A stretch of DNA of 64,000 nucleotides from an uncultured Candidatus Saccharibacteria bacterium (GCA_964562105.1 CAZLRP010000001.1:2949-66948), one strand, 5' to 3'. Shown: positions 1,250 through 60,140, counted from the stretch's first letter. A program made the numbers and translations. Notes: generated from the sequence alone by a model not told the origin.

Positions 1250-1549
1250 TTATATGAAAGCTATCTTATCTCCCTTTTTTAAGAATACAAGAGCTTTTTT
1301 TACAGCTTGTTTGACTCCTTTTCTGCCTCTGGCTGTAACATTTTTTGCTGGTAAATTTACTATGTTAATTTTTATTGGAGTAACTTTGTATATCATTTGG
1401 ATTGCTTCTCCAATAGTTTTCTTTGTTGCATCTTTTGTAACTTCAAAAGTATAAACGTTTTGGGATTCAGATTTGATTCCCGCCTTTTCAGTGATTCTTG
1501 GCTTCTTTACGATGGACAAAATATGATTTTTTTCTTGTGTGTTTTTCAT
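1250..1549 (-). CDS. rplW: 50S ribosomal protein L23
   Basis: 99 aa, L23-like sequence (ILSIVKKPRITEKA...); located between L4 and L2. Confidence 0.88.
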   Translation of the reverse strand: MKNTQEKNHILSIVKKPRITEKAGIKSESQNVYTFEVTKDATKKTIGEAIQMIYKVTPIKINIVNLPAKNVTARGRKGVKQAVKKALVFLKKGDKIAFI

Positions 1550-1554
1550 AATGA

Positions 1555-1670
1555 TTTTACGAATTAACGAATTATACTAATGATACGAATGTTTACGAAT
1601 GAATGCATTTGAATTTTTGAGTTATTTGTAGCCATTTGTATCATTCGTTCCATTCGTATATTTGTATGTT
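1555..1670. repeat. ATTCGTA/TACGAAT degenerate heptamer array in the rplD-rplW spacer
   Basis: about 10 units at 8-10-bp spacing (CGAATTAACGAATTA...GATACGAATG...CATTCGTTCCATTCGTATATTTGTATG). Confidence 0.7.
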
Positions 1671-2434
1671 TACCTTGCCATTTTAGCCTCCATAAATTTA
1701 ATTGAATCTGCAGGATTCTCAATTACGAGATACTTCATATTCAATAAATCTACTGGGTTTATATTTCTAACTTCATCGACTTCTACATTTCCGATATTGG
1801 CAAAGCTCTTTTCAAAAGCTGGTTTTTTACCCGAAATGGCAATGATTGCGCTGTTATTTTTCTTGCTGAATATATCCGAAGCTGTTTTTATTTTGCTTAA
1901 AGAATTCAAAATTCCAATTGCTTCTGCTGTTTTTGGTTTTGCTATTTCAAATTTATCTACAAAAAGTATTTCTCCGTCTTTTAGTTTTCTGGAAAGAATA
2001 GTGTAAAGTGCTTTTATTTTCATTTTTTTGTTTATCTTCCTGTCATAGTTTTTCAATCCGTTTGGACCATGAGCAATACCTCCATGTACCCAAATAGGTG
2101 ATCTTGTAGAACCATGTCTTGCGCGCCCTGTTCCTTTTTGTTGCCAAGGTTTCTTACCACCTCCCGAAACTTGCCCTCTTGTTTTTGTATGAGCATAAAT
2201 AACCCTGCTGTCTGAAAGCATTGAAGTCACAACTTGATGAACAAGGTCAGCATTCCAAGAAAGTCCAAAAACATTTGCAGGCAAACTTATTTCTCCGACC
2301 TCTTTCCCACTTTGATTGTAGATTTTTGCAGGAGATATTTCAGGAATTGTTTTTGTTTCTTTTGGAGTAGCTACTTTTTTTATTTTAGTTACAGCTTTTT
2401 TAACAATATTCTTTTTTGTTGTAGTTTTTTCCAT
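1670..2434 (-). CDS. rplD: 50S ribosomal protein L4
   Basis: GTGRARHGSTRSPIWVHGGIAHGP motif typical of L4; operon context. Confidence 0.9.
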   Translation of the reverse strand: MEKTTTKKNIVKKAVTKIKKVATPKETKTIPEISPAKIYNQSGKEVGEISLPANVFGLSWNADLVHQVVTSMLSDSRVIYAHTKTRGQVSGGGKKPWQQKGTGRARHGSTRSPIWVHGGIAHGPNGLKNYDRKINKKMKIKALYTILSRKLKDGEILFVDKFEIAKPKTAEAIGILNSLSKIKTASDIFSKKNNSAIIAISGKKPAFEKSFANIGNVEVDEVRNINPVDLLNMKYLVIENPADSIKFMEAKMAR

Positions 2435-3125: not shown

Positions 3126-3512
3126 TTAGATCATCTTAACATCAATATTCACCCCTGAAGGCAAACTGATATTCGTGAGAGCTTCAATAACTTTAGCGTT
3201 TGGATTTATTATATCTATAAGTCTCCTATGTATCCTCATCTCAAATTGTTCTCGCGCATTTTTGTAGACAAAAGATGCCCTGTTGACTGTATATTTTTTA
3301 ATATCCGTAGGCAAAGGTACTGGACCTACAATTTTTGCATCATGCCTTAAAGCTGTTTCAATTATTTGCTTGACTGAGGAATCCAATATTTTGCTGTCAT
3401 AGGCCCTAACCCTTATTCTTAAAATAGAAGACGCCTCTCCTTTAACAGCTACTTTTGCCGCTTTTGTTTTTGATACTTTTTTCGTATTCCTTTTTACTGC
3501 TGTTTTTTCCAT
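3126..3512 (-). CDS. rpsJ: 30S ribosomal protein S10
   Basis: LRIRVRAYDSKILDSS...PLPTDIKKYTVNRASFVYKNAREQFEMRIHRRLIDI is canonical S10. Confidence 0.95.
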   Translation of the reverse strand: MEKTAVKRNTKKVSKTKAAKVAVKGEASSILRIRVRAYDSKILDSSVKQIIETALRHDAKIVGPVPLPTDIKKYTVNRASFVYKNAREQFEMRIHRRLIDIINPNAKVIEALTNISLPSGVNIDVKMI

Positions 3513-5194: not shown

Positions 5195-5869
5195 TTACGG
5201 CATCATACCTTCAAAGATATTTTTGTCTATACTTGACTTCTCAAGTTTATACGTGAAACAAAGAAGGTAGTCATTACTGTCCCAATCATGCCTGGAACAA
5301 ATGGGACGGAATTCAAAGTCATTGTTAGTGCGCGGAACCCATAAAGACGGCATGTTTAAATCAACATCAAAACGATTCCATCGATTCTCCTCATCAAGAG
5401 ATGTATACCAGTGACCTTTAGGCAACTCGTCACGTTTTTGTTCAAAGACAAGTGAGACCCCCTGAACACCTAGAAGAATCGCATTCTTACTTTTAAGAAA
5501 CATCAGACGTTCATCTGATGTTGTTCTACCAGAGATAATTTGTTTCAACACGGAAACATGAAGTTTATCGCCCGGCTTCAAAATCTGAGCCGGGTCGTCA
5601 AACCTATCATCATCAGCAATAAAATCGCTATAGAAAAAAAACTTTTCTTTGTTTTTTTCCTTAAATAACTTTAATCTCGTCTTGTGTTCGTAATCTTTAG
5701 GTACAACAATGACGCCGAGATCTTTTAGAAGAACAAATCTTGGTTTTTGCTCATCTATGATTTTTTGAAAAACATCCGCAACCTTTATTGGGTCACGCTT
5801 CCCATTAAGCACTAAATTGTTAATGGAAGCTTCCAACTTCCACAGTCTTGCAAAAGCATCATTACTCAT
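5195..5869 (-). CDS. hypothetical protein inserted between tuf and fusA
   Basis: 224-aa ORF with its own terminator hairpin at 5146-5180; no recognisable motif; repeat elements lie on both sides. Confidence 0.5.
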   Translation of the reverse strand: MSNDAFARLWKLEASINNLVLNGKRDPIKVADVFQKIIDEQKPRFVLLKDLGVIVVPKDYEHKTRLKLFKEKNKEKFFFYSDFIADDDRFDDPAQILKPGDKLHVSVLKQIISGRTTSDERLMFLKSKNAILLGVQGVSLVFEQKRDELPKGHWYTSLDEENRWNRFDVDLNMPSLWVPRTNNDFEFRPICSRHDWDSNDYLLCFTYKLEKSSIDKNIFEGMMP

Positions 5870-6139: not shown

Positions 6140-8296
6140 TTATTTGCTTTGTGTGCCCCTCACTTCAATAATTTCTTTGGCTACATTAGGAGGTACTATT
6201 TCATAGCTTCCGAATTCCATTGTGGACGAAGCTCTTCCCTCTGAAATTGACCTCAAGGTGGTAACATAACCGAACATTTCAGCAAGAGGAACATTAGCTC
6301 TGATAACTTTATTCATTCCTCTGTCAAACATTTCAGTTATTTGTCCTCTCCTTGAATTGATGCTTCCCGAAACATCTCCCATGAATTTTTCTGGAGTAAC
6401 AACTTCAACTTTCATTACAGGCTCAAGGAGAACCGGTCTTGCTCTTTTTGCCGCATCTTGAAATGCCATGGACGCTGCAATTTTGTAAGCGATTTCTGAC
6501 GAGTCAACATCGTGATATGAACCGTAAGTAAGTTCGCAAGAAATATTTACCATTCTATATCCGGCAATTACTCCTCTTTCCATGCTCTCTTTTACTCCTT
6601 TTTCAACTGCTGGAATAAATTCTTGCGGAATAACTCCTCCTTTAATAGAATCTATAAATTCAAAGTCATCGTATCTGCTAACATTCTTAGGAATTTTCTT
6701 GCCTTCCTCAAGTTTTTGCATCGGCTTAATTTTAATGAGAACGTGACCATATTGTCCTTTTCCTCCAGACTGTTTTATGTATTTTTCTTCTTTTTCAGCT
6801 TCTCCGGTAATTGTTTCTTTGTAAGCAACTTGTGGTTTTCCAACATTTGCTTCAACTCCGAATTCTCTTTTCATTCTGTCTACAAGAATTTCGAGGTGAA
6901 GTTCTCCCATACCTGCCATAACAGTCTCTCCCGTTTCTTGATCCGACTTGATTTTAAATGTTGGGTCTTCATCCGAAAGTTTCTTCAAAGCAAATCCCAT
7001 TTTTTCTTGGTCAGCTTTTGTCTTTGGTTCAATTCTAAGAGTAATAACCGGTTCTGGAAATACAATTTGGTCAAGAATTATCGGATTGGCTTCATCGCAA
7101 AGAGTGTGAGAAGTTTTCGCGTTTTTCAAACCGACAGCCGCCGCAATTTCTCCGGCAAAAACAGTCTCCACTTCTTCTCTGTCATTTGCGTGCATTCTGA
7201 CAATTCTTCCCAATCTTTCCTTTTCTCCGGTTGTTGAATTGTAAATATAAGTTCCCGAAGAAATACTTCCGGAATAAACTCTGAAATATGTAAGCTGTCC
7301 TACAAAAGGATCATTTTGCAATTTAAATGCCAGAGCGCAAAATGGATCTTCATCAGTTGCATGTCTTAAAACTTCTTCTCCATTGTTTGGATTTATTCCT
7401 TTTACTGGTGGAATATCAAGCGGGGAAGGAAGATAGTCAACAACTGCATCAAGTGTGAGTTGAATACCTTTATTTTTCAAAGCCGAACCTGTAAATACAG
7501 GAACAATCGTATTTGCAATGGTTGCTTTTCGGAGAACTGCTTTGAGCTCATCGATGGGAATCTCTTTTCCTTCAAGATAATCGTTCATAAGCTTTTCATC
7601 ATTTTCAGAAATTTTTTCTACAAGCTCAAGCCTGTATTTTTTTGCATTTTCCAAAAGTTCGGCAGGAATTTCTGCTTCTCTGACAACTTCTCCCATTTCG
7701 CCTTCAAAGTAATAGGCCTTCATTTTTAAAAGATCTACTATTCCTGAAAAATCAGATTCTGAACCAATGGGAAGCTGCATTCTTACAGCATGTTTTGTAA
7801 GTCTTTCCAAAATTGATTGAAATGATCTTTCAAAATTTCCTCCTGTTCTATCAAGTTTGTTTATCAAACAAATTCTTGGAACATTTCCTTCGTCAGCATA
7901 TCTCCAGTTTGTTTCTGATTGAGGTTCCACTCCTGCGACTCCGTCAAAAACAACTACGGCTCCGTCAAGAACTCTGAGTGAACGCTTAACCTCTGCGGTA
8001 AAATCAATGTGGCCGGGAGTATCAATGATATTGAATCTTACTTTCTTACTAAAATCGGTTTTTGGCATGTACGAAGGATTCCAAAAACAAGTAATAGCAG
8101 CTGACGTAATGGTAATACCTCTTTCTCTTTCCTGTTCCATCCAGTCGGTCGTAGTTTCTCCTTCGTGAACCTCACCGATATCGTGCTGAGATCCAGTGTA
8201 ATAGAGAATTCTTTCCGATGTGGTTGTTTTTCCGGCATCAATGTGAGCAATGATTCCAAAATTTCTTACTTTTTCTAATGGATAATCTCGTTTCAT
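6140..8296 (-). CDS. fusA: elongation factor G
   Basis: [28 protein letters not shown]; 718 aa EF-G architecture. Confidence 0.97.
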
Positions 8297-8299
8297 GTA

Positions 8300-8345
8300 T
8301 TTAATATGCGAATATACGAATTATGCGAATGATACGAATGGCTAC
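8300..8345. repeat. heptamer array upstream of fusA
   Basis: ATGCGAATATACGAATTATGCGAATGATACGAATGGCTAC. Confidence 0.65.
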
Positions 8346-8581
8346 AAATAAATACGATGAATTTTTATCATATCTATAATAGTTTTCGTAAGATTATTAT
8401 ACTATATTCATATTTAATTAATTGTTGATAAAATAATTTAAGTAATTTTAATTTACTTTTTTCTTTTTATTTTTAGTGAGATGCGAGGCGCTGAAAAAAT
8501 TTGTGACTAAAATGTACGTTGGTACATTGCAGAAACAAATTTTTTTAGCAACGAAGCAGATTGCAAAAATTAAAAGGAAAT

Positions 8582-9180: not shown

Positions 9181-9594
9181 TTATTTAACTTTCGGTTTTT
9201 TTGCACCATATTGGCTGCGACCTTTCTTTCTTCCTTCTACTGCAGTAGCATCGAGAACTCCTCTTACTATCGTGTATCTGATACCAAGGTCTTTAACTCT
9301 TCCGCCTCTTAAAAGAACGACTGAGTGTTCTTGAAGTGTATGTCCCATTCCCGGGATATAAGCGGTGACTTCCATTCCATTCGAAAGTCTGACTCTTGCG
9401 ATCTTTCTGATAGCTGAGTTTGGTTTTTTCGGCGTCTTTGTCGTAACTTTCACGCAAACTCCCCTTTTAAAAGGAGAACAAAGTTTCGTCGGTCTGTTTT
9501 CCAGAGTGTTAAAACCCCTCATCAAAGCCACGGCTTTCGGCTTTCTTGGAGCAGTTTTCCTGTTTTTCTTAATTAATTGGTTTATTGTGGGCAT
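9181..9594 (-). CDS. rpsL: 30S ribosomal protein S12
   Basis: [10 protein letters not shown]...[10 protein letters not shown]...canonical S12; start taken at MPTINQ. Confidence 0.93.
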
Positions 9595-9849
9595 ATTTGT
9601 TAATAATTCAAGCCTAGTAATAAAATAAAAAGCTACAGAAATATTTCGCTTCCTTAGTGCAAAATACCTCCGCAACTCATTTGTAATTCAACTCTAGTCT
9701 TCTAAAAGCAAGCTTTTATTAGACGGAACACTTGCATACAGCCAAGTAGCTAATGTGAAAAGATAATATAATAAAATACCAAAAAAAGCAACCTTCGACT
9801 GAATCTAGAATGTAAAAGTTAGAACATAGAAATTAAAGTAAAAAATATA

Positions 9850-9922: not shown

Positions 9923-10537
9923 CTAGCTAATTCCCGTTATCAACTTAAATAGAAAAAATATAATTGGAGATATAATATTCGGCAAAAGCATAACCATAAG
10001 CAAAATAATTAATATTCCGTATTTTTCTGATAAATTATAAAATGTATATTTTGCCTGTGTCGGAAGAAAAGCAAAAAGGATTTTTGATCCATCAAGAGGA
10101 GGAATTGGCAGTAAATTAAAAACGGCAAGACTCACGTTTATAAGCACGACTAAAAGAAATATGCCAATAAGAGGTGACGAAGAATAGTCAGAATATAATA
10201 ATCCCCTGATTATTAGCCCGAAAACAACTGCTACAAAAATATTGGAAGCTGGTCCGGCAAAAGATACAAGGGGTTCGGCTATATTTCTATTTTTTAAATT
10301 ATAAGGATTATACGGCACAGGTTTTGCCCAGCCAATCATAAAAGGTGCATTTAGTAAAAATAAGCTTAATGGCAAAATAACAGAACCTAACCAATCCAAA
10401 TGTTTAATCGGGTTAAGGGTAAGCCTTCCTTCATACTGTGCAGTTTTATCGCCAAAAAAAAGGGCCATGTATCCATGCGATATTTCATGAATTATTACGG
10501 AAAATATAAGTATTAAAATTTGTAAGACTACATCCAT
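9923..10537 (-). CDS. M50 family (site-2 protease-like) membrane metalloprotease
   Basis: HEISHG zinc motif, polytopic membrane protein. Confidence 0.75.
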   Translation of the reverse strand: MDVVLQILILIFSVIIHEISHGYMALFFGDKTAQYEGRLTLNPIKHLDWLGSVILPLSLFLLNAPFMIGWAKPVPYNPYNLKNRNIAEPLVSFAGPASNIFVAVVFGLIIRGLLYSDYSSSPLIGIFLLVVLINVSLAVFNLLPIPPLDGSKILFAFLPTQAKYTFYNLSEKYGILIILLMVMLLPNIISPIIFFLFKLITGIS

Positions 10538-10590: not shown

Positions 10591-10836
10591 ATGGCAAAAA
10601 TCTGTCCAATAACAAAAAAGACTTCAATAATGTGCGGTGGCTACAGCAACGCAACTCGTGCTACACAATTTAACCCTACAGGAAAAGTAAGGAAGCAAGT
10701 CAATTTCCAAAAGAAAAGAATCTACGTTCCTGAACTTAAAAAAACCTTTGTTTTGGATATTTCAACAAAAGGCATAAAAACCATACAGAAAAATGGGGCA
10801 TTTGCTACCCTGAAAAAGGCGGGAATAATTAAATAG
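10591..10836 (+). CDS. rpmB: 50S ribosomal protein L28
   Basis: MAKICPITKKTSIMCGGYSNATRATQFNPTGKVRKQ matches the L28 pattern; start taken at MAKIC. Confidence 0.8.
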   Translation: MAKICPITKKTSIMCGGYSNATRATQFNPTGKVRKQVNFQKKRIYVPELKKTFVLDISTKGIKTIQKNGAFATLKKAGIIK

Positions 10837-10958
10837 GTTTTAGTTTTTAGCTTTTAGGTGTCAGTAAATTCAAATACATAATACAAAAGAGCGGCGCCTA
10901 CGGCGCCGCTCTTTTGTATTTCCTAAAACCTAGAAACTAGAACCTAAAACCTAATTTA
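10837..10958. repeat. GGTTTTAG 9-mer arrays in inverted orientation flanking a terminator hairpin
   Basis: GGTTTTAGTTTTTAGCTTTTAGG ... [terminator 10875-10906] ... CCTAAAACCTAGAAACTAGAACCTAAAACCTAA. Confidence 0.6.
10875..10906 (+). terminator. rho-independent terminator after rpmB
   Basis: AAAAGAGCGGCGCCTACGGCGCCGCTCTTTTG. Confidence 0.8.
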
Positions 10959-11489: not shown

Positions 11490-12365
11490 CTATTTTTCTT
11501 CAATGATAGCCAAACCGCCAGAAATAAAAGAAATGTCTCCTAAATCATAAGTGATTAGCACTTTGCTTTTAATATCATTTAAAAAATCCAATATTTCTTT
11601 GTGTGGATGGCCATAACTATTATTTACTCCCGCAGAAATAACGGAGTATTCTGAATTAACGGCCGATAAAAATTCGGGAGAAAGAGAATTTTTTGACCCA
11701 TGGTGTGCAATTTTCAGCACATCGCTTTTTAATTCTGCTCCATCTGTTTTTGCCAGATATTCTAAAACATCAGTCGGCGCATCCCCAGTGAACATAAAAG
11801 TTGAATCCCCATAATAAAGCTCCGCCACGATAGAATATTTGTTTGTATCAGTTCCTTTTGGATTATTATTCGGATACAAAATTTTTAAATAAGCCCCGCC
11901 GCCAAGATCAAAAATTTTTCCCGTTCTCGCAATTTCTGTTTTTATATTCTTCTCCAAAATTTGATGCTCCAGTTCTTTGAAAGTTCCCGTGCTAGAAGTC
12001 GCTCCACTGCTTATGTATTTTCGAACGGAATAATTTTTAAAAACTTCGGGAATTCCTCCAATATGGTCTTGATCCGGATGAGTCACAAGAATCGCGTCTA
12101 TAGTCTTATCGTAAAAAGGCATTACCCTGCCCAGAGCATTTAAAATATTTTTATCCGGTCCCCCATCTATAAGAAGCTGATTGCCAATTGGCGATTCTAT
12201 AAAAATAGCATCGCCTTGGCCAACATCCAAAAATGAAACTTTTAAAACATTATTCCTGGTTTCGGCTACGACAGTATAAAAAATCATTCCGTTCACAAAA
12301 AGAAGCAGAGCCAAGAAATATATTTTTATTTTATTAAATTTAAACATTTTTTTGTATTGTGTCAT
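11490..12365 (-). CDS. ComEC-related metallo-beta-lactamase-fold domain protein (C-terminal module of ComEC as a separate ORF)
   Basis: LDVGQGDAIFIE...HPDQDHIGG MBL motifs after an N-terminal TM helix; the first ATG lies inside the GIY-YIG element's inverted repeat. Confidence 0.72.
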   Translation of the reverse strand: MTQYKKMFKFNKIKIYFLALLLFVNGMIFYTVVAETRNNVLKVSFLDVGQGDAIFIESPIGNQLLIDGGPDKNILNALGRVMPFYDKTIDAILVTHPDQDHIGGIPEVFKNYSVRKYISSGATSSTGTFKELEHQILEKNIKTEIARTGKIFDLGGGAYLKILYPNNNPKGTDTNKYSIVAELYYGDSTFMFTGDAPTDVLEYLAKTDGAELKSDVLKIAHHGSKNSLSPEFLSAVNSEYSVISAGVNNSYGHPHKEILDFLNDIKSKVLITYDLGDISFISGGLAIIEEK

Positions 12366-12718
12366 TCCCGCGCAGGCGGGAATCCAGTGTTAAATTATAA
12401 TTCTGAACTCAAATCTTTCCATTCTGGATTTTCTTTTTCAATCAACCTTCTTTTCCATAGCCTATTCCATCTTTTTATGCATTTTTCTCTTAATATCGCA
12501 CTTTCTATATCTGTTGTCTGTTCATAATATACAAGAGTTTTAACATTGTATTTTTTAGTAAAACCTTCAACTAAACAATTTTTGTGCTCATATACTCTTC
12601 TCAATAAATCGTTTGTAACTCCGATATACAATGTCCCATCACGCTTACTCGCTAAAATGTAAACATAATAATATTTCATGAAAAGATTATACTGGATTCC
12701 CGCCTTCGCGGGAATGAC
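12361..12718 (-). mobile_element. GIY-YIG family-1 element: 28-bp palindromic hairpins (GTCATTCCCGCGCAGGCGGGAATCCAGT) in inverted orientation flanking a GIY-YIG gene
   Basis: left hairpin 12361-12388, right hairpin 12691-12718; located between the two comEC ORFs. Confidence 0.7.
12395..12679 (-). CDS. GIY-YIG nuclease family protein (URI domain, YhbQ-like)
   Basis: YYVYILASKRDGTLYIGVTNDLLRRVYEH = GIY-YIG motifs; 94 aa; flanked by 28-bp inverted hairpins. Confidence 0.85.
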   Translation of the reverse strand: MKYYYVYILASKRDGTLYIGVTNDLLRRVYEHKNCLVEGFTKKYNVKTLVYYEQTTDIESAILREKCIKRWNRLWKRRLIEKENPEWKDLSSEL

Positions 12719-12723
12719 AAATA

Positions 12724-15546: not shown

Positions 15547-15589
15547 TGAAATGATAATACCATACGTTATACAAAATGAAAAAAGCATT

Positions 15590-15660
15590 GTCATCCCCGC
15601 GGAGGCGGGGATCCAGTATTAAATCAATTCATACTGGATTCCCGTTTTCACGGGAATGAC
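15590..15660. mobile_element. gene-less double-hairpin miniature of the GIY-YIG family-1 element
   Basis: GTCATCCCCGCGGAGGCGGGGATCCAGT + 15-nt spacer + ACTGGATTCCCGTTTTCACGGGAATGAC; same left-end spacer ATTAAAT as in the full element. Confidence 0.65.
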
Positions 15661-16065: not shown

Positions 16066-16110
16066 AATTAGTTTTTAGGTTTTAGCTTTTAGGTGTTAGC
16101 TTAAAACCAA
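16066..16110. repeat. GTTTTAG 9-mer array
   Basis: AGTTTTTAGGTTTTAGCTTTTAGGTGTTAGCTTAAAACC. Confidence 0.5.
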
Positions 16111-16279: not shown

Positions 16280-16339
16280 ACAACTATTGTATCAAATTGA
16301 TGATATAATATCATCTAATAAGATTTATTAAATTAATTT

Positions 16340-16385
16340 GAATTATTCGTAGCCATTCGTAACATTCGAATAATTTTCGTATATT
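16340..16385. repeat. heptamer array
   Basis: ATTCGTAGCCATTCGTAACATTCGAATAATTTTCGTATAT directly before an ATG. Confidence 0.65.
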
Positions 16386-16387
16386 AT

Positions 16388-22274: not shown

Positions 22275-24944
22275 TTAAGATGATTTAACTACAATAAATG
22301 ATTTTTTCTTAAACCATTCAATAAGAATTATCTCGATGAAACTTATTAAAACTATAATGGTCCAGTCAGCAATGATAAGGGGTTGTGTTGAAAGTAATTT
22401 TTGTAATGGGCTAAAATAAATCGATGAAGTAAGCAGTAGTAATCCAATTATGACTGCCCCAACCAAAATTTTATTTGAAAAGATATCTTTTCGAAACATT
22501 GGACGTTTAAAAGATCGAACACTAAAAGAAAACACCAATGAATCAAGACACATAAGAGCAAACACGATTGACCGTGTCTTATCCAAATCCCCTGTAATTT
22601 TCCAAAGAAGGAAAAATGACATGAAAGCGGACAAACCAGTAATAAAGAAAATCGAAAGTAACCATTTTTTCATCGGTCTGTTCAAAATTGATTCGCTTGG
22701 ATCACGAGGTCTTTCATCCATAACCCCAAATGTTTCCTGTTCAGTAGTTAGAGCAATATCAGGCAGACCATCCTCCACTAGATTAATCCAAAGAATCTGG
22801 GCAGCTAAAAGAGGCAACGGTAGGCCAAAAGCCATTGCCACTAAAAATAAAAACAATTCTGAAAAATCGTCAGCTATCAGATAAATAAAAACTTTACGAA
22901 TATTTTGAAAGATAATACGGCCTTGTTCAATCGCTTTTACAATTGTTTTAAAGTTGTCATCTAATAACACGATATCTGCCACTTCTTTGGCAACGTCTGT
23001 ACCTGAACCAACCGAAATACCAACATCAGCTTTTTTTAAGGCTGGAGCGTCATTAACACCGTCACCAACCATAGCCACTACTTCACCCCTGGCTTGTAAA
23101 GCATTTACGATACGAAGTTTATGACCGGGAGACACACGAGCATAAATAGAAACATGTCTTACTTTTTCTTCAAGTTCTTGATCCGATAAATTATCAATAT
23201 CTTCACCCTCAAGAATCATCTCCGAACTTGCTTCAATACCAACTTCTGTAGCAATTGATTGAGCCGTCAATCGGTGATCACCAGTAATAAGAACTGTGCG
23301 AATACCAGCTCGTTTTGTTAAAGAGATTGAATCTTTGGCATCAGAACGTAATGGGTCTTTTAAAGCAATATAGCCAATAAGAATTAAGTCTTTGGATAGA
23401 TTTTCTATTGAATCCATATCTTTTTCTTTTGGAAATTCACGGTAAGCACAGGCCACAACTCTTAATCCACTCTTGGTTAGAGATTCAAGTTTTTGCAAAA
23501 GTTTATTATGAGCCTCCGAACCTAAGGGTTCTATTTTTCCATCAACATAAAAATCAACGGCCCTTGAAGCAACAACTTCTGGTGCACCAATAACATATAG
23601 AATCTTATTTCCATCTAGTTTTGTATGAAGAGAAGCTGAGTATTTTGCTTCTGAAGTAAAAGCTAGTTTCTCTATGGTGGGGTATTCTGCCTCAAGTTTT
23701 TTCTTAGACAATCCAGCGTGCATTCCGGCCACCAATAAAGCTCGTGAGGTAGGCACGCCACGCACAATCCACTCATGAAATTCATCGTCAGGATTTTCAA
23801 TAAAAGCGTCGTTTGTTAAGACAGCCACCTTTAAGGCAAGAATGTGTGACTCAAGACCGTTTGCTTTATTTATATCAATAATTGGGTCTTTATTATTATT
23901 AAAAAGCTCTTGAGTGCCGGTAAGAATATGACTGACCTGCATTTTTCCTTCAGTAAGTGTTCCGGTTTTGTCTGTACAAATAACGGTGACGCTTCCTAGT
24001 GTCTCGTTAGCAATAAGTTTTCTAACTAAACCATTATGCTTAAGTATCCGACGCATACCGAGAGCGAGAATAACGGTAATAGCAGGCAAAAGACCGGCCG
24101 GAATAGCCGATACAGCTAGAGCCAAAGAAGCAATAAAAATATCATTGAACGATTGGCCATTTTTATACCCAAGAACAATAACAATACCAATAATAAATAG
24201 AACAAAAAGACCGACCCAGCGAGAAAGTGAAGATATTTTTTTCTGTAATGGGGTTGGTCGTTCTTTTGTCTCCCGAAGAAGGGATACTATGCCGCCAATC
24301 TCTGTTTTCAATCCTGTTTCAACCACAATAGCTGTCGCTGTTCCCTCCTCCACGATACTTCCCATAAAAACCATATTGATCTGATCAGCTAGTGGACTTT
24401 TTTCTGGAATTTCATCTACGAACTTTGACACAGCCAGCCACTCGCCAGTCAAACTAGACTCATTTATTTTTAATCCGCTCACTTCAATTAGACGAGCATC
24501 GGCAGGAACTTTATCTCCAGATTTTAGAAAAAAAATATCACCTGGAACCAATGTTATGCTATCTATTTCTTTTAAATTACCGTCTCGTAATACCCGAGTT
24601 GAAATCTTGACTATGTTTCTTAGAGCAACTAGAGAATTATTGGCCTTATTTTCCTGATAAAAACCTACAGTGGTATTTATTAGAAGCACCACAACAATAA
24701 AAACAGCATCGGAATAATGAGCAAGATAAAACGAGACTCCACCAGCTACTAAAAAAATAATAACTAAAGGACTGTTAAACTGACTTAAAAAAAGTTTGAT
24801 TTTTGAATAAGGTTTTTCCTTAGGCAAAATATTCATCCCAAATTTTTCTAACCTATTTTTTGCTTCCAGATCTGATAGGCCTTCTTCGTTTGTTTTTAAA
24901 TCCAGAAATATTTTTTTCAACTTTAGAAAATACCACTTCGTCAT
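22275..24944 (-). CDS. P-type cation-transporting ATPase (type IIA-like)
   Basis: ICTDKTGTLT phosphorylation motif, MVGDGVNDAPALKKADVGI hinge motif; 889 aa. Confidence 0.93.
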   Translation of the reverse strand: MTKWYFLKLKKIFLDLKTNEEGLSDLEAKNRLEKFGMNILPKEKPYSKIKLFLSQFNSPLVIIFLVAGGVSFYLAHYSDAVFIVVVLLINTTVGFYQENKANNSLVALRNIVKISTRVLRDGNLKEIDSITLVPGDIFFLKSGDKVPADARLIEVSGLKINESSLTGEWLAVSKFVDEIPEKSPLADQINMVFMGSIVEEGTATAIVVETGLKTEIGGIVSLLRETKERPTPLQKKISSLSRWVGLFVLFIIGIVIVLGYKNGQSFNDIFIASLALAVSAIPAGLLPAITVILALGMRRILKHNGLVRKLIANETLGSVTVICTDKTGTLTEGKMQVSHILTGTQELFNNNKDPIIDINKANGLESHILALKVAVLTNDAFIENPDDEFHEWIVRGVPTSRALLVAGMHAGLSKKKLEAEYPTIEKLAFTSEAKYSASLHTKLDGNKILYVIGAPEVVASRAVDFYVDGKIEPLGSEAHNKLLQKLESLTKSGLRVVACAYREFPKEKDMDSIENLSKDLILIGYIALKDPLRSDAKDSISLTKRAGIRTVLITGDHRLTAQSIATEVGIEASSEMILEGEDIDNLSDQELEEKVRHVSIYARVSPGHKLRIVNALQARGEVVAMVGDGVNDAPALKKADVGISVGSGTDVAKEVADIVLLDDNFKTIVKAIEQGRIIFQNIRKVFIYLIADDFSELFLFLVAMAFGLPLPLLAAQILWINLVEDGLPDIALTTEQETFGVMDERPRDPSESILNRPMKKWLLSIFFITGLSAFMSFFLLWKITGDLDKTRSIVFALMCLDSLVFSFSVRSFKRPMFRKDIFSNKILVGAVIIGLLLLTSSIYFSPLQKLLSTQPLIIADWTIIVLISFIEIILIEWFKKKSFIVVKSS

Positions 24945-25319: not shown

Positions 25320-25377
25320 TTATATTTATTCGTAGCCATTCGTAGATTTGTATCATTCGTATATTTGTATGTTTATC
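25320..25377. repeat. heptamer array
   Basis: TATTCGTAGCCATTCGTAGATTTGTATCATTCGTATATTTGTATGTTTATC, ending at a gene stop. Confidence 0.65.
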
Positions 25378-25920
25378 TTAATATTTTGGAGACTCTTCAG
25401 TACCACTTTCCAATGCTGAATATCTCGCAAGCGCATACAAAAGACTGGATAAACGATTTAAAAAAACAAGAGTTTCTGAATCAATTTTTGCCATACCCTC
25501 TTCGTTTACTGCAACAACCCTTCTTTCTGCTCTGCGTACCAATGTACGAGCAAAATCAAAATCGGCAGACATTTCATTTGCACCGGAAATAAGAAAAGTT
25601 TTAATTGGCGGTAATTTTTTTTCTATATTATCAATAATATTTTCAAGATATTTTGTTTTTTCTTTTTGTATTTTTTTATCTGCACCAGCAACTTGGGCTT
25701 GAATGATAAAAATATTATTCTGAATTATATGAATAATATTCTGAATTTTTTCTCCATCAACCTTATAACTTTTAACTTTACACTTTATAACTCCTAAGTA
25801 TGAATTTGCTTCATCCAAGCACCCCAAAGCTTCGGTTATCGCCGAACTTTTTGAGATTTTCTGGTCGCAACATCCAAACATATTTGTTTTTCCTTTGTCT
25901 CCCTTTTTTGTGTAAAGCAT
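25378..25920 (-). CDS. cob(I)alamin adenosyltransferase (PduO-type)
   Basis: YTKKGDKGKT...ITEALGCLDEANSYLG pattern of PduO/MMAB. Confidence 0.78.
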   Translation of the reverse strand: MLYTKKGDKGKTNMFGCCDQKISKSSAITEALGCLDEANSYLGVIKCKVKSYKVDGEKIQNIIHIIQNNIFIIQAQVAGADKKIQKEKTKYLENIIDNIEKKLPPIKTFLISGANEMSADFDFARTLVRRAERRVVAVNEEGMAKIDSETLVFLNRLSSLLYALARYSALESGTEESPKY

Positions 25921-33627: not shown

Positions 33628-33957
33628 TTATATAGAAGGGTCAATTAAATTTTCCAATTTTAAATTAGCAACTACAGATTTTTTTGCTTTAAAATTATTC
33701 AGTATTTTTTCTAAATCATCGGATTTTAATTTTTCAATAGTAAGCTCCGTTTTGTCTACGCTTATATACATATCTTCTTTCACAAGAGTTTTATACATAT
33801 GAATATCAAAAAAAACAGAGGTCGCCACTAAGATAGCGAGAAAAATTATTAAAATATTCCAATCTCTTTTTGGATTTACTATGTCTCTTGACAAAAGTGC
33901 AGGCTTTGACAAAGAATCTGTGGTGGGTAATTTAATTTTGTTGATATTATTATTCAT
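33628..33957 (-). CDS. small membrane protein
   Basis: 109 aa, one TM helix. Confidence 0.4.
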   Translation of the reverse strand: MNNNINKIKLPTTDSLSKPALLSRDIVNPKRDWNILIIFLAILVATSVFFDIHMYKTLVKEDMYISVDKTELTIEKLKSDDLEKILNNFKAKKSVVANLKLENLIDPSI

Positions 33958-33974: not shown

Positions 33975-34035
33975 AATTGTATTTATTCGTTGCCATTCGT
34001 ATCATTTGTATAATTCGTATATTCGTATGTTTATC
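33975..34035. repeat. heptamer array
   Basis: TATTCGTTGCCATTCGTATCATTTGTATAATTCGTATATTCGTATGTTTATC. Confidence 0.65.
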
Positions 34036-34593
34036 TTATTTATCTTTCATCTTTACTACAGTAAAATCCAAATTTAAAGACCATTCCGGAACTTTTCTGC
34101 CTTTTATTATTGAATCGGAAAATTTATTTAGCGACATTTTGGTTATATTTATTTTCAAAGGATAATTTTCCAAAGATTTTAAAAATAGTTGGATATTTTG
34201 CCATGCCCCTGTGGCATTAATGTTTATTTTTAATAATTCTTCCCCCATTTTGTCTCCTTTGTCATAAGTTGCGCTTGAAACGGTGTTTATATTGTATTTG
34301 AGCCCGGTATTTGAAATCAGCTGTTCTAATGTTTTTAGGAAATCAACGGTACCTCCTTTCGCTATAATATATTCTTCCAATTTTTTCTGATACATTTCAC
34401 CCAAAATCAAATCATCTTTCATCAAAGTTTCGGCACCTTCTTTTTTTAATTCCGTTTTTATATCGTTTGATTTATTTACAGATTCAGCAATCAAATTCTT
34501 CGTAAAAGAAAACAGAAATACAAAAGCGCCCATAGACGCAATGCCCAGAAGCAGAAAAACGGCTAATAATATTTTTGTTTCTTTTTTAGGCAT
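34036..34593 (-). CDS. type IV pilus assembly protein PilO-like
   Basis: N-terminal TM plus coiled coil; position after pilN. Confidence 0.5.
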   Translation of the reverse strand: MPKKETKILLAVFLLLGIASMGAFVFLFSFTKNLIAESVNKSNDIKTELKKEGAETLMKDDLILGEMYQKKLEEYIIAKGGTVDFLKTLEQLISNTGLKYNINTVSSATYDKGDKMGEELLKININATGAWQNIQLFLKSLENYPLKINITKMSLNKFSDSIIKGRKVPEWSLNLDFTVVKMKDK

Positions 34594-34609
34594 TTTTATT
34601 TTTTATTAA

Positions 34610-34690
34610 TTATTTGCAGCCATTCGTTCACCCTGTTAAATTTGAATTCTATTTAATAGGGTAAATTCGTATAATTTGTTAATTCGTAAT
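34610..34690. repeat. heptamer array
   Basis: GCAGCCATTCGTTCACC...AATTCGTATAATTTGTTAATTCGTAATTAT. Confidence 0.55.
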
Positions 34691-35223
34691 TATATGATTA
34701 AAGTTGCAGAAAACTGTGAATCAGAACTTTTTATGAAATCCGATACCGGGAATACTACGCTTTCAAATGAACCATCGGCGGTAATATTTTTATTAAATAA
34801 AGTTAGGCTGTCTCTCGTATTTGCAATACCATTTATTATAATTTTTTTACCGACTGGATTACTTTTTTCAATTATGAACGATAGAATTTTAATATCTTTA
34901 TTTTTTAAGGATATGATTTTCTTTATGATTTCGCTGTAGGACAATTTAGCATCTGCATCATCCGAAAGAGCCCCGACTAGTCCGTTTACTTTCTTTATAA
35001 ACAAAACTGGGTCTTCGCCATTATAAGCATTTTTTTGTTTGATTGATTCTAATTGATTGCTCGTTGTATCATTTTTGTATTTAGCAAAAAAAACTGACGG
35101 AAAAAACAGAGAAATTAATATTATGCTTGATATAAAAATAAATGTCATCAGAAATATGGCTATTCTGAATAAGTATTCAAGAATAATTTGTTTTTTATTT
35201 TTTTGTGGCAAAAAGTTAAGCAT
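34690..35223 (-). CDS. type IV pilus assembly protein PilN-like
   Basis: LNFLPQKNKKQ...TM helix; follows pilM. Confidence 0.6.
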   Translation of the reverse strand: MLNFLPQKNKKQIILEYLFRIAIFLMTFIFISSIILISLFFPSVFFAKYKNDTTSNQLESIKQKNAYNGEDPVLFIKKVNGLVGALSDDADAKLSYSEIIKKIISLKNKDIKILSFIIEKSNPVGKKIIINGIANTRDSLTLFNKNITADGSFESVVFPVSDFIKSSDSQFSATLII

Positions 35224-38723: not shown

Positions 38724-39311
38724 TTACGAAGGAATTACAAGGGTTACATAATCCAGCTTGCTAAGATCAATTTTTTCATCAAAATTATTTACAACTCCAC
38801 GCGCTTTTCTTGGAGATACGCCAAGCTCCGTACAGAAGTAGTAGTGAAGATTGATAATATTTCCTTCAATTGCATTTCTCTCAACAGATGGTAACTTTAT
38901 TTTTATTTCTGCCGGATAGCTATAATAACGTTCGGGGAAAACCGGCTCCATGACGAAAGCATGAATTCTTTTATACCCTTTGGCAGACGAAACTTTAATT
39001 TTTAAATTCGGATCACCTTTTTCAATTGATATTTGTAAACTATCAGGCAAGAAAATATAACCATGGACAGGATTGAATGCCGATAAGCTATCATTTTTTA
39101 TATAAAGACTGAAAGAAATTTCATACCCTCCATCGGAAGCTTTCGCCAAAAACAATTCTGTTTTCCTATTGGATTGAAAAAATAATTTCAATTTCGGCCT
39201 TTTTAAAAATCGGAGCCATGGCGGTACCAATAAAGAAAAAATTAACGCAACCAAAAACATTGATAAAAAAATAGTTCCAAAAGAATTTCCAAAAATTGTG
39301 CTTATACTCAT
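38724..39311 (-). CDS. hypothetical membrane-anchored protein
   Basis: N-terminal TM helix; 195 aa. Confidence 0.45.
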   Translation of the reverse strand: MSISTIFGNSFGTIFLSMFLVALIFSLLVPPWLRFLKRPKLKLFFQSNRKTELFLAKASDGGYEISFSLYIKNDSLSAFNPVHGYIFLPDSLQISIEKGDPNLKIKVSSAKGYKRIHAFVMEPVFPERYYSYPAEIKIKLPSVERNAIEGNIINLHYYFCTELGVSPRKARGVVNNFDEKIDLSKLDYVTLVIPS

Positions 39312-42536: not shown

Positions 42537-43298
42537 TTACTTTATTTCTCTTATCAATTCCACAAAATTATCAATTTTTAAGCTCTCTCTTCCAATCAAA
42601 AGCCCGTCAACATTTCCCTTCTCAATTATTTCCTTGAAATTATTCTTTGTCACTGAACCTCCATAAAGTATTTTTACTTTTTTTACAGCTTCGGCACCTA
42701 AAGTATCGCTTATCAATCTTTTTATAAAAATGCTTATTTCATGAAGCTGATCTGGTTTTATTGCTTCGTTTTCCGGTTTTCCGATGGCCCAGACGGGCTC
42801 ATATGCGATTATCAGATTCTTAATCAATTTTCTTGGTAATTTTGTGATTGCATCTTCAATCTGCTTTTTGATTTCATGGTAATGGTCGCCGTGTTCATTT
42901 CTTTCCTTTTCCCCCGCGCATAGTATTACTTTAAAACCCTCTTTCAAAGACCCCCACATTTTCTCTTTTACGACTTCGTCGCTATCAAGAGTCGCTCTGC
43001 GTTCGGAATGACCCACTAAAATATACTTCACACCAGCTTTTTTTAGTAATTCTACTCCGACTTCCCCAGTATGAGATACCCCAAGCCCCACAAATACGTC
43101 TTGAGCTCCCAAAAGAATTTTTTTTGATGAAGAAATAGCGTTTGAGACCTCATTTAAAAATATAAAAGGCGGACAAACCACCAAACGAACATCACCAAAA
43201 CCTTTTGATTTGTTTTTTATCTCGGTTATTATCTGCCCCGCGTCCTCTGCCGATTTCGGATTCATTTTCCAATTCGCCACGATTAATTTTTTATTCAT
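42537..43298 (-). CDS. tpiA: triosephosphate isomerase
   Basis: AYEPVWAIGKPE, VANWKMN motifs. Confidence 0.93.
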   Translation of the reverse strand: MNKKLIVANWKMNPKSAEDAGQIITEIKNKSKGFGDVRLVVCPPFIFLNEVSNAISSSKKILLGAQDVFVGLGVSHTGEVGVELLKKAGVKYILVGHSERRATLDSDEVVKEKMWGSLKEGFKVILCAGEKERNEHGDHYHEIKKQIEDAITKLPRKLIKNLIIAYEPVWAIGKPENEAIKPDQLHEISIFIKRLISDTLGAEAVKKVKILYGGSVTKNNFKEIIEKGNVDGLLIGRESLKIDNFVELIREIK

Positions 43299-43339
43299 AC
43301 GGTAAGATTATACCATTTTAAAAATATTTGGTATAATTG

Positions 43340-43450
43340 AGATACGAATATACAAATAATACTAATGATACGAATGGCAACGAATAAGAAATTAATTTGA
43401 TTCATTTGTAGCCATTTGTAACATTCGCATAATTCGTTAATTCGTATATC
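43340..43450. repeat. heptamer array (long)
   Basis: GATACGAATATACAAATAATACTAATGATACGAATGGCAACGAATAAG...TTGTAGCCATTTGTAACATTCGCATAATTCGTTAATTCGTATATC before an ATG. Confidence 0.7.
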
Positions 43451-43452
43451 AT

Positions 43453-43914
43453 ATGGAAAACAAAATCTCTTGGGTGGCGTTTGAATATAAAAGAAAAGAA
43501 AAAACCGCAGACTGGTATTGGGCAGTAATTCTTATATCTTTGGTCATAGTGGTAGCATCCATCATCATGCACAATGTTCTTTTTGCAATATTGATAATTA
43601 TCTCCACTGTAATTCTTATGTCATTTTCCGTAGTCGCCCCAAAAACAGTTGAGATAAGTGTAAATCAAAAGGGTGTTACCGTAGGAAAAGAAATGTATCC
43701 CTTTGCAACTCTTGAACATTTTTGGATAGAAAGTACAGACGAAGAAAACCAAAAGATTTTATTAAAATCCAAGAAATTAATTATGCCACTTATAGTTATC
43801 CCCCTTGAAGAACACCATCATCTGGATGTAAGAGAATTTTTACTGCAATATCTTAAAGAAGTAGAAATGCATGAGCCTTTGTCACAGAAAATAATGGAGC
43901 GATTAGGTTTTTAG
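43453..43914 (+). CDS. hypothetical membrane protein
   Basis: two TM helices, 153 aa. Confidence 0.45.
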   Translation: MENKISWVAFEYKRKEKTADWYWAVILISLVIVVASIIMHNVLFAILIIISTVILMSFSVVAPKTVEISVNQKGVTVGKEMYPFATLEHFWIESTDEENQKILLKSKKLIMPLIVIPLEEHHHLDVREFLLQYLKEVEMHEPLSQKIMERLGF

Positions 43915-43935
43915 CTTGTAGCTTTTTAGCTTCTT
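43903..43935. repeat. GTTTTAG-type 9-mer array
   Basis: GGTTTTTAGCTTGTAGCTTTTTAGCTTCTTAG overlapping a gene end. Confidence 0.45.
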
Positions 43936-43985
43936 AGATGATAAATTAAAGCCGATGGAAAATAAATTTTCATCGGCTTTAAAAT

Positions 43986-45219: not shown

Positions 45220-45345
45220 GTTTTAGTTTTTAGTTGCTAGGTTTTAGGAAACACAAACTAGGGATTTTTCGCTTTGCGAAAAATCCCTAGTTTGTGTTTG
45301 AATTTTCTAATAGCTAAAAACTAGAACCTAAAACCTAACTTGGTG
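45216..45345. repeat. GGTTTTAG 9-mer arrays flanking a terminator between ruvA and fpg
   Basis: GGTTTTAGTTTTTAGTTGCTAGGTTTTAGG ... [terminator 45249-45299] ... CTAAAAACTAGAACCTAAAACCTAA; the arrays supply the TAG stop codons of both convergent genes. Confidence 0.6.
45249..45299. terminator. bidirectional terminator between ruvA and fpg
   Basis: AAACACAAACTAGGGATTTTTCGCTTTGCGAAAAATCCCTAGTTTGTGTTT. Confidence 0.8.
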
Positions 45346-51134: not shown

Positions 51135-51195
51135 ATGCAATAACCGAGAAAATATAACAAGAAATTAACAAAAAGTCTATAGATAAACCTATGTT

Positions 51196-51346: not shown

Positions 51347-51362
51347 CAGACTCACTGCCCTT

Positions 51363-59324: not shown

Positions 59325-59359
59325 TTTTTTGTATTGTCATTGCGAGCGGAGTGAAGCAA

Positions 59360-59430
59360 CCCAGGTTAAATTGTATTTATTCGTAGCCATTCGTATCATT
59401 CGCATAATTCGTTGATTCGTATGTTTATCT
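59360..59430. repeat. heptamer array
   Basis: TATTCGTAGCCATTCGTATCATTCGCATAATTCGTTGATTCGTATGTTTATC. Confidence 0.65.
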
Positions 59431-60140
59431 TAAAATTTAACTATCTTCGCTTTATTTTTATACTTTTTTATTAAAACCTGATCTCCATTATCAAGAATTA
59501 TTTCTTCATCGTTGTTATCCGCATAAACGATTGCTTTACCTCGAGTTATTTTTACGACGATTTCGGAATCTTCTTTTAAAACCATGTGGTCCGATTGTTC
59601 TATACTATTATTGAAAGCTACTCCGATGCCAACTTCAAAAAAACTATCGGTAATAGATCTATAATATCCGGTTGAGCCATAAGGTGTAGAAACAGCAACA
59701 CCATCACCTATTATTTCCTCGCCCACCTTTTTATCGTTTATAAAAATTTCATATCGTATAGCACACCTTGGATCAATATTGTGAACGATAATTTCGTTTA
59801 GCCCAACAATTTTTCTTGTCCCGTCAAATTGGCTTTTTATTTGACTGGGATTACCGCAAGAAGTAGCTTCAATTTTAATTTCATCTTCAACCCTGTATTC
59901 CTTCTTTGTAATTTTTTTTAAAATTTCTTCTGGTGATAAATCATGTCCTTTTTTTGAAGTTTTACTTTTCTTCAAAATAAACTTCGGAATTTCAGGATAA
60001 TCTTTTTCTGATTTCATAAGTGTTCCGTCCCCACCGACGACTGCCACCATGTCTGGAGTCTCAGTAACTATTTTAAAACCGGTCTTTTCTACAAGTTTTA
60101 TTATTTCTTCAGTTTTGTGACCGTAGATTAGGAGGTTCAT
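59430..60140 (-). CDS. ppnK: NAD kinase (with in-frame palindromic-element insertion)
   Basis: VVGGDGTLM motif, GSTGY motif; contains PSQIKSQFDG insertion; start uncertain (an alternative ATG lies 42 nt upstream). Confidence 0.8.
   Translation of the reverse strand: MNLLIYGHKTEEIIKLVEKTGFKIVTETPDMVAVVGGDGTLMKSEKDYPEIPKFILKKSKTSKKGHDLSPEEILKKITKKEYRVEDEIKIEATSCGNPSQIKSQFDGTRKIVGLNEIIVHNIDPRCAIRYEIFINDKKVGEEIIGDGVAVSTPYGSTGYYRSITDSFFEVGIGVAFNNSIEQSDHMVLKEDSEIVVKITRGKAIVYADNNDEEIILDNGDQVLIKKYKNKAKIVKF
59820..59849. repeat. P1 palindromic element copy in the NAD kinase gene
   Basis: identical core, in frame (NPSQIKSQFDG). Confidence 0.85.

Follow-up and report, generated by a model that had tools for sequence, protein, structure and literature searches.

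Dispersed ATTCGTA heptamer arrays of Patescibacteria as a possible mobile intergenic repeat

The stretch of DNA considered here (the window) comprises 64,000 nucleotides from an uncultured Candidatus Saccharibacteria bacterium (GCA_964562105.1, CAZLRP010000001.1:2949-66948), and its subject is an array of ATTCGTA heptamers that recurs between the genes. The flanking genes identified, rplB, rplW, rplD, rplC, rpsJ, tuf, fusA, rpsG and rpsL, all lie on the minus strand, and the names given to them in an earlier annotation made without database searches (the sequence-only reading), including rplD, rplW and fusA, were correct. Exact ATTCGTA was found 27 times on the two strands, compared to 8.9 +/- 2.9 expected from dinucleotide-preserving shuffles (n = 100; maximum 20), and 22 of the 27 lie inside the eight regions for which arrays had been claimed; outside the arrays the heptamer is not enriched (5 seen, with 8.9 expected for the whole window). 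Clustering of the degenerate heptamer ATTYGYW revealed a spacing of 10, 9, 9 and 8 bp in five arrays and of 10, 8, 9 and 8 bp in one. The periodicity survived formal autocorrelation, with same-strand peaks at 8-10, 17-19, 26-28 and 36 bp (7-12 counts versus 0.3 expected, maximum 4), and Tandem Repeats Finder returned a period of 9 with approximately five copies. The proposed spacing of 8-10 bp thus stands, but its equation with about one helical turn does not: the period is close to 9.0 bp, not 10.5, and successive heptamers consequently spiral around the helix instead of aligning on one face.

A profile search with nhmmer, using a profile made from six copies, retrieved 10 copies at 8 intergenic sites of the window (E 1e-19 to 6.5e-4), in agreement with the earlier claim that arrays occupy eight regions, all of them intergenic. 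Each unit, or arm, of approximately 55-65 bp consists of five ATTYGTA heptamers followed by a short tail and optionally preceded by an AT-rich 5' extension, with the consensus (AATTGTATTT) ATTCGTAGCC ATTCGTATC ATTCGCATA ATTCGTAT ATTCGTAT (GTTTATC). A short form has four heptamers and ends in ...CATAATTTTCGTAT ATTAT; short and long forms were found at one orthologous site in two cases, upstream of fusA in the window and in locus L017 (L numbers denote loci retrieved from other genomes), and in L021 and L037. The quality of the copies ranges from 66 down to 15 bits, one copy being split by the insertion of a hairpin. The arrays are copies of one discrete element and not loose clusters, and the element was never found in coding sequence. 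Across 25 copies chosen independently of the search pattern, the ATTnG of each heptamer carries the most information and the spacers of 1-3 nt carry little, as would be expected of five equivalent protein contacts. The ten copies of the window are the following.

1556..1607 (profile 1558-1607), minus strand: array arm, left half of a head-to-head pair; nhmmer 36.5-38.2 bits, Tandem Repeats Finder period 9 x 5.0; heptamers ATTCGTAAAC ATTCGTATC ATTAGTATA ATTCGTTA ATTCGTA, with the tail AAATCATT adjoining the rplW ATG at 1549.
1616..1678, plus strand: array arm, right half of the pair, spacing 10/9/9/8; nhmmer 55 bits; its tail GTTTACC holds the TAA stop of rplD (1670-1672, minus strand).
8296..8358, minus strand: single long-form arm, co-oriented with fusA; nhmmer 61.5 bits; CATATT ends 6 nt ahead of the fusA ATG (8296-8294).
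16336..16387, plus strand: single short-form arm of four heptamers, ending ...CATTCGAATAATTTTCGTATATTAT; nhmmer 37.9 bits; flush with the ATG (16388) of an open reading frame (ORF) for a 68-aa membrane protein.
25320..25381, plus strand: single arm, spacing 10/8/9/8, anti-oriented between two minus-strand genes; nhmmer 51.4 bits; tail GTTTATC+TTA at the stop of the cobalamin adenosyltransferase gene 25378-25920 (Pfam PF01923), 5' end facing tRNA-His.
33976..34038, plus strand: single arm, anti-oriented; nhmmer 58.3 bits; tail GTTTATC+TTA at the stop of ORF 34036-34593 and, at the 5' end, core 27 nt from the ATG of ORF 33628-33957.
34606..34688 (profile 34608-34688), plus strand: disrupted arm; nhmmer 15.3 bits across the gap; tail at the stop of ORF 34690-35223; an unrelated insert of 33 bp at 34630-34662, the hairpin ACCCTGTTAAAT...ATTTAATAGGGT, parts heptamers 1-2 from the last three.
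43332..43390 (profile 43332-43387), minus strand: arm directed at tpiA (start 43298; Pfam TIM); nhmmer 39.5-44.5 bits; the extended -10 of tpiA, TGGTATAAT, 8 nt before its ATG, lies outside the arm.
43395..43457, plus strand: arm flush with the ATG (43453) of an ORF for a 153-aa membrane protein; nhmmer 56.2 bits.
59370..59434, plus strand: best-conserved single arm, anti-oriented; nhmmer 65.9 bits; tail GTTTATC+TTA at the stop of the NAD kinase gene (59430-60182), in which Pfam NAD_kinase_C extends to residue 249/250.

The 120-bp spacer between rplD and rplW (1550-1669) is made up of two arrays placed head to head, and the arms at 43332..43390 and 43395..43457 form a second such pair in a divergent spacer, 106 bp core to core with an inner gap of 18. 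As the sequence-only reading had described, arrays abut start codons (the ATGs at 16388 and 43453 and that of fusA at 8296) and elsewhere end in GTATGTTTATC at gene stops, where TTA follows at 25377, 34035 and 59430. The hairpin at 34630-34662 occurs once in the window (fold, -12 kcal/mol). The ORFs immediately 3' of the co-oriented arrays of the window encode small membrane proteins, not DNA binders.

The search of related genomes that the sequence-only reading had called for was made as an exact scan for a 24-nt core, ATTYGTAGCCATTYGTAWCATTYG, in one genome for each of 185,579 species, and it returned 54 loci (L001-L054) from approximately 30 genomes; the requirement for an exact 24-mer partly explains the conservation of the first 24 nt in these loci. 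All labelled carriers of the core are Patescibacteria (Paceibacterota/Parcubacteria, Zambryski-, Wolfe-, Kaiser- and Vogelbacteria, and metagenome-assembled genomes (MAGs) labelled Saccharibacteria), the remainder being unlabelled "uncultured bacterium" MAGs. A close relative of the window, the CAINLW MAG (84% nucleotide identity over fusA), is among them. The carrier loci have 30-58% GC, and the AT-rich core is retained throughout. The family is restricted to Patescibacteria of the Parcubacteria/Paceibacteria type. An origin from viruses, phages or plasmids was rejected, as IMG/VR, INPHARED and PLSDB gave no match to the element. A literature search found no paper that prints 15-mers of the element or ties Patescibacteria to repeats of the miniature inverted-repeat transposable element (MITE) or repetitive extragenic palindrome (REP) type, and the element is, within the literature searched, previously undescribed.

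An occurrence in many Patescibacteria does not make the element uniform among them. In a sample unbiased for the element, 80 metagenomic loci encoding relatives of ribosomal protein L4, it was present in 6 of the S10-region loci, with 8 copies in 720 kb versus 10 in the 64-kb window (approximately 1 per 6 kb), and in close relatives of the window the density of heptamers is at background. Copies are more alike within a genome (identity 0.81-0.91 in three genomes) than between genomes (0.66), and they form genome-specific subfamilies in which the flanks past the core are shared. The suggestion of a genome-specific selfish repeat was therefore half right: the selfish reading gained support, but the distribution is patchy and not limited to one genome. 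Several copies lie within approximately 200 bp of contig ends (L007, 4-47; L021, 78-134; L047, 67-117; L059, 171-216; L088, 1363-1402, at the contig end), and one runs into the end, as is to be expected if a high-copy repeat breaks short-read assemblies.

Syntenic relatives of the window revealed filled and empty sites. The closest of these (L055-L058 and L060), whose L4 is 82-87%, L23 86-93% and EF-G 94% identical to those of the window, have no array at rplD|rplW and separate the two genes by a 5-nt spacer (...GGCAAAATAA AAATT ATGAAAAAC...; the empty site reads ...GGCAAAATAAAAATTATG... in L055, L056 and L060). In the window, approximately 118 bp of paired arrays stand in its place and the stop codon of rplD is newly supplied by a tail. 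At rplC|rplD one anti-oriented copy is present in L059 and L066, whereas only a 4-nt spacer separates the two genes in the window and in five relatives; further copies in the S10 operon were found at rplD|rplW (L070) and at rplW|rplB (L092 and L088). The rpsG-fusA spacer carries the element in the window and, in the short form, in L017, but not in L040 or L056, and L040 has a copy ahead of its ortholog of window gene 9923-10537 where none is present in the window or L056. In all, at least four sites that hold the element in one genome lack it in syntenic relatives. Long rplD-rplW gaps (150-300 bp) in other Paceibacteria were also considered as divergent arrays and rejected; they are lysine-rich N-terminal extensions of L23 of 50-90 aa (MALFGKK..., MPLFGFRKDKK...), which mimic a 150-300-bp intergenic gap in tblastn (rplD-rplW region of L072, L086, L088-L093, L098, L100, L104, L110 and L117-L119). 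Individual intergenic junctions gain and lose the element, which multiplies into genome-specific subfamilies. Together with the decay of some copies, these observations describe a repeat that spreads, decays and is lost, rather than an ancestral regulatory site; a fixed site of periodic binding, as first envisaged, is disfavoured relative to a selfish repeat since the arrays at rplD|rplW and rpsG-fusA are missing from the syntenic closest relatives.

The arrangement of arms was assessed with a pooled set of 93 copies from the window and L001-L054, in which the genes of the fetched loci are crude longest-ORF calls, unreliable above approximately 45% GC. Pairs are always joined 5' to 5' with their tails outward (12 in the order "-+" and one "-++" versus none "+-"), and the composite measures 105-110 bp core to core in different genomes, with an inner linker of approximately 18-23 bp in 9 of 13 pairs that often contains GAATGCAT. 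Each composite has two types of arm, A with heptamers spaced 10/9/9/8 and B spaced 10/8/10-11/8; single arms outnumber composites. Among arms on the stop side, the stop of the convergent neighbour lies within 10 nt of the tail in 34 of 41, and often inside it, where GTTTA, or a TTA just after GTTTATC, is read as TAA. On the start side, the ATG of the co-oriented neighbour lies within 11 nt of the tail in 21 of 28 (gap of 3-11 nt). The outward tail thereby becomes a gene boundary, donating a TAA stop or directly preceding an ATG. GTTTATC was rejected as a general post-stop motif, as its 16 other occurrences are not at gene ends.

Between tandem genes the commonest order is stop, tail, array, 5' end, 12-40 nt and ATG, and composites fill the whole spacer, from an arm at the stop to an arm at the ATG. 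The bias in orientation for which a test had been proposed is present, with 32 anti-oriented versus 19 co-oriented copies between tandem genes. Convergent spacers hold none of the 8 window sites, not significantly different from the 1.3 expected, and 12 of 64 classifiable sites in the pooled set (78 sites, 14 of which are at locus edges), where ORF calls in GC-rich loci are unreliable.

Copies recur in particular operons. Five composites were found within 3.4 kb of the ribosomal-protein operon of L023 (at S19|L22, after L16, after L14 and before L5), three sites around L22, S3 and L16 in L025, and three copies in the pilD-pilin operon of L020; genes of the PilB/PilT ATPase family are recurrent neighbours, and junctions of the S10 operon are occupied at several places in six lineages. 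The element may be of use at such loci, or it may prefer highly transcribed DNA when it inserts. Constraint on a single copy is apparent from L044 (JAVHRR) and L052 (CAINLW), where arm A between the same pair of genes is identical at 58 of 58 positions, compared to approximately 70% for the flanking coding DNA and 68% and 54% for the flanking proteins; arm B is present in L044 only.

It is proposed, at about even chances, that the ATTCGTA arrays represent a MITE-like mobile repeat, or one resembling the bacterial interspersed mosaic elements (BIMEs), the arms of which are arrays of sites for a predicted binding protein. The complete form would be the composite of approximately 105-110 bp, with the two non-identical arms A and B head to head over a linker of approximately 20 bp, and single arms would represent half-elements. 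The five ATTnG units would bind several subunits of a single sequence-specific protein; it could be a transposase or a domesticated or host factor, and it may wind around the DNA as a filament, in the manner of IS607-family TnpA or BIME-binding proteins. Cooperative binding, as the sequence-only reading had it, remains the most natural interpretation of five equivalent units, although sites 9 bp apart would not lie on one face of the helix. The same protein could both constrain the sequence and mediate its spread. In some lineages the last heptamer may then have been co-opted, such that ATTGGTAT followed by ATT becomes TGGTATATT, an outward-facing extended -10 that would drive a leaderless mRNA of the neighbouring gene. 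The mobile-array reading and a host regulatory or promoter reading are not mutually exclusive.

A number of observations weigh against this proposal. Among the commonest Pfam families of the 116 proteins encoded beside the arrays there is no transposase or recombinase, only housekeeping families; a neighbouring transposase was rejected as a candidate on this basis and on the nature of the small membrane-protein ORFs noted above. Arms flanking a kilobase-sized insert were not seen in 134 loci, and the viral, phage and plasmid collections lacked any copy. No target-site duplication was definable from filled and empty sites: at rplD|rplW, rplC|rplD and L044/L052 there is no clean direct repeat, with a possible TAAA at rplD|rplW only. 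The conserved copy of L044 and L052 and the retention of the core at 58% GC point to host benefit or gene conversion, neither of which is predicted of a purely selfish element. Finally, copies are over-represented in highly expressed operons and biased in their orientation to transcription, and this could reflect function and not just tolerance.

The first of the other explanations is a host cis-regulatory module, in which an array of operator or activator sites, recognized by a conserved Paceibacteria transcription factor, would be joined to a core promoter at highly expressed operons and turned over as a "mobile promoter", with the array at -20 to -55 and the last heptamer and tail serving as the -10 of a leaderless or short-leader mRNA. 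Its background is a genome-wide geometry: among 297 ATG-start ORFs, TGnTAnnnT, often accompanied by a TTGACA -35, ends 6 nt before the ATG in 19, 7 nt in 5 and 8 nt in 4, with mostly 0-1 elsewhere (examples are 22275-24944(-), 38724-39311(-), 42537-43298(-), 49748-50812(+) and 57782-58471(-), and others were seen in L001-L054), which implies, to judge from the sequence, that leaderless mRNAs are probably widespread in these Paceibacteria. Other genes of the window have a strong AAAGGAGG Shine-Dalgarno sequence. Tails fit this geometry in their distance to the ATG where -10-like TGGTATATT, TGGTATCTT or CATATT ends 6-7 nt before it, as in L018 (twice), L032, L035, L051 and window fusA (CATATT-N6-ATG). 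In many lineages the fifth heptamer ATTGGTAT followed by ATT yields TGGTATATT, a perfect extended -10, at this distance in L018 (both copies), L032 and L035, and it is plausible that start-side tails were co-opted as leaderless promoters. The recurrence of arrays beside genes for ribosomal proteins, EF-G, tpiA and type IV pili, the strong conservation at an orthologous site and across 30-58% GC, and the likeness of head-to-head pairs to divergent promoters (43332-43457, between tpiA and a plus-strand ORF) are also in keeping with a promoter module. Against it, outward ends at stops outnumber those at starts, and transcription from a promoter at a stop would run antisense into the upstream gene; stop-side arms are the best conserved; in the short form (CATAATTTTCGTATATTAT-ATG), TATATT is only 2-3 nt from the ATG and does not fit a leaderless start; and the promoter of tpiA, TGGTATAAT, is outside the arm. 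Of 28 canonical extended -10 promoters 26 have no array, and with only two borne on one the array is not a general promoter. The corresponding genes of the closest relatives have no arrays, and no regulon of single or partial sites exists, isolated heptamers not being enriched. The promoter or UP-element module suggested earlier may thus apply to a minority of copies, while as a general explanation we regard it as rather unlikely.

An element acting at the level of RNA, with paired arms as intercistronic processing or stabilizing hairpins or with UUCGUA/UACGAA repeats bound by an RNA-binding protein, appears very improbable. Pairs do form long hairpins (z = -3.7 to -5.5), a necessary property of inverted repeats, and they are located exactly between stop and start codons within operons; in the ribosomal-protein operon of L023, the gene-sense strand is more stable than the antisense by 12-17 kcal/mol in 4 of 5 pairs. 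The antisense strand, however, is the more stable by 10-14 kcal/mol at window rplD-rplW and in L005, L036 and L015, and the arms keep differing internal spacings that would not be expected of a selected helix, which together argue against consistent selection for one. Single arms, the majority, are unstructured (z = -0.06 to -0.7), and the element is found in both orientations to transcription. Rfam returned only tRNAs above the gathering threshold over the window and no match at E <= 1 in window 1400-1800; a structured RNA was accordingly rejected. Just as improbable is a chromosomal landmark, whether an uptake signal, an anchor for the nucleoid or gyrase at heavily transcribed operons, or a centromere-like array, that would have spread by molecular drive and not by transposition. 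Consistent with such a role are the restriction to a single clade, the strong conservation of sequence, the enrichment, shared with BIMEs, at the ends of highly expressed operons and at their junctions, the inverted pairs 3' of genes as with the DNA uptake sequences and uptake signal sequences (DUS/USS), and the sub-helical spacing of the direct-repeat arrays, as is typical of DNA binders that form filaments. But the element arrives as insertions of 55-120 bp instead of by point mutation in place and is never in coding sequence, and a density of approximately 1 per 6 kb with absence from most related genomes is unlike uptake sequences or an essential chromosome-organizing site.

The element was compared to known systems. 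The BIMEs and REPs of enterobacteria and pseudomonads are mosaics of inverted Y- and Z-type REPs, mobilized by REP-associated tyrosine transposases (RAYTs) and bound by integration host factor, gyrase and DNA polymerase I. Like these, the present element is high-copy, strictly extragenic and often intercistronic or just after the stops of well-expressed operons, and it has two non-identical inverted arms with a short linker, its presence varying among relatives while its sequence is conserved in the clade; the mosaic feature itself is seen in the inverted A and B arms, the defined linker and the shared GAATGCAT. Unlike a REP, its arm is an unstructured array of five heptamers and not a palindromic hairpin of 20-40 bp, the host clade is Patescibacteria, and no RAYT-like (Y1 transposase) gene was seen in the 8-20-kb loci. 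MITEs and foldback elements, for example the Correia elements of Neisseria, carry outward promoters. Here, too, there is a short (approximately 110-bp) non-coding multicopy element with insertion polymorphism between relatives, genome-specific expansions and ends that can donate promoters, start contexts or stops. The terminal inverted repeats of a MITE may be represented by the inverted arms of the composites, tails outward (12-13 versus 0), while most copies are single arms. The element differs from MITEs in that no target duplication or parent insertion sequence (IS) was found, the arms are internally repetitive, half-elements outnumber full ones, and the core is conserved over very divergent genomes (30-58% GC).

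Arrays that act as operators or centromeres, namely ParR-parC, the omega heptads of pSM19035 and OmpR/PhoB boxes, are found at fixed loci, in one or a few copies per replicon. They share with the element several equivalent, direct short sites with a periodicity of 7-11 bp that can overlap or flank promoters, but the element is dispersed at approximately 1 per 6 kb and polymorphic between relatives. The geometry of a sigma-70 promoter with UP element fits several co-oriented long forms and not the short forms, and more outward ends lie at stops than at starts. A transcription-factor regulon is not matched, as arrays are missing at the same genes in the closest relatives and isolated heptamers are not enriched. 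DUS/USS have a core of 9-12 bp, occur at approximately 1 per kb and are found also in genes, whereas this unit is at least 45 bp, occurs at approximately 1 per 6 kb in intergenic regions only, and arrives as an insertion. In contrast to CRISPR and TIGR arrays, the spacers are of 1-3 nt, and no cas or tas gene was present among the flanking genes examined. A further likeness is to the ends of the IS607 family. In IS1535, TnpA forms a filament on four direct repeats of 9 bp that are helically phased and lie 20-60 bp from the end, and elements of this family have neither terminal inverted repeats nor target duplications (PMC6188088). Similarly, the element has 4-5 short direct repeats at a spacing of approximately 9-10 bp, well fitted to a cooperatively binding filament, together with asymmetric ends and no detectable target duplication. 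It departs from the family in its inner linker of approximately 20 bp, in 7-bp repeats that reach nearly to the end of the element, and in termini of ...GTTTATC or ATATTAT instead of GG; no tnpA or tnpB was found near the arms or between them, and no resolvase-type domain is among the commonest Pfam families of the neighbours. The element is therefore classed as a bacterial interspersed repeat that lacks at least one of the tested defining features of BIMEs/REPs, of MITEs and of IS607-family elements; its arms form no palindromic hairpin, its termini are not GG, and no transposase, parent IS or target duplication was found.

Other features of the window were observed in passing. The window also has 7 copies, versus 0.01 expected, of another interspersed repeat, CCGCCTNCGCGGGAATGACA, in which a GC-rich hairpin precedes ATGACA; its ATG is taken as a start codon by ORF calling, and similar sequences occur in L008, L072 and L119. 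Contiguous heptamer arrays of TTTTAGG/TTTTAGC lie just 3' of gene ends, in two convergent spacers as inverted sets around a strong terminator hairpin, and their 7-nt period places a TAG stop in every reading frame. The coordinates are as follows.

12360-12379(-), 12700-12719(+), 15589-15608(-), 51195-51214(-), 51329-51348(+), 53832-53851(-) and 53886-53905(+): copies of CCGCCTNCGCGGGAATGACA, with a related sequence at 59332-59360.
10834-10860 and 10922-10954; 16068-16102; 43903-43937; 45217-45248 and 45314-45338: TTTTAGG/TTTTAGC arrays.

Between fusA and tuf, the str operon holds an ORF for 224 aa (5195-5869, minus strand) with a strong Shine-Dalgarno sequence and no Pfam domain, a 36%-identical relative of which lies elsewhere in L060. 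The ORFs of S10, L4 and S12 (3126-3512, 1670-2434 and 9181-9675, all on the minus strand) run 30-65 codons upstream of the start of their Pfam domains; these stretches could be real N-terminal extensions or over-called starts, that of S12 being a TTG.

The Patescibacteria (candidate phyla radiation, CPR) have tiny, packed genomes, hardly any of them have been cultured, and little is known of their non-coding DNA or regulation. Here, an intergenic sequence conserved across a clade is able to split the otherwise invariant S10 ribosomal-protein operon, and the stop codons and start contexts that it donates reshape gene boundaries. The 45-bp array offers a bait for finding a new DNA-binding protein or transposase, gene calling and the making of genetic tools in Patescibacteria stand to benefit directly from the evidence for leaderless extended -10 promoters, and the element is likely to break short-read assemblies of the genomes that carry it. 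It is conceivable, though on balance unlikely, that the array is recognized by a Paceibacteria DNA-binding protein and that the host has domesticated the pair as a portable gene-boundary module, inserted between the genes of highly expressed operons (ribosomal proteins, EF-G, pili), with the stop side ending or insulating one unit and the start side launching a leaderless mRNA. If so, the streamlined CPR genomes would rewire their operons with a mobile, protein-bound cassette, a counterpart of the REP/BIME-RAYT system with a different repeat architecture.

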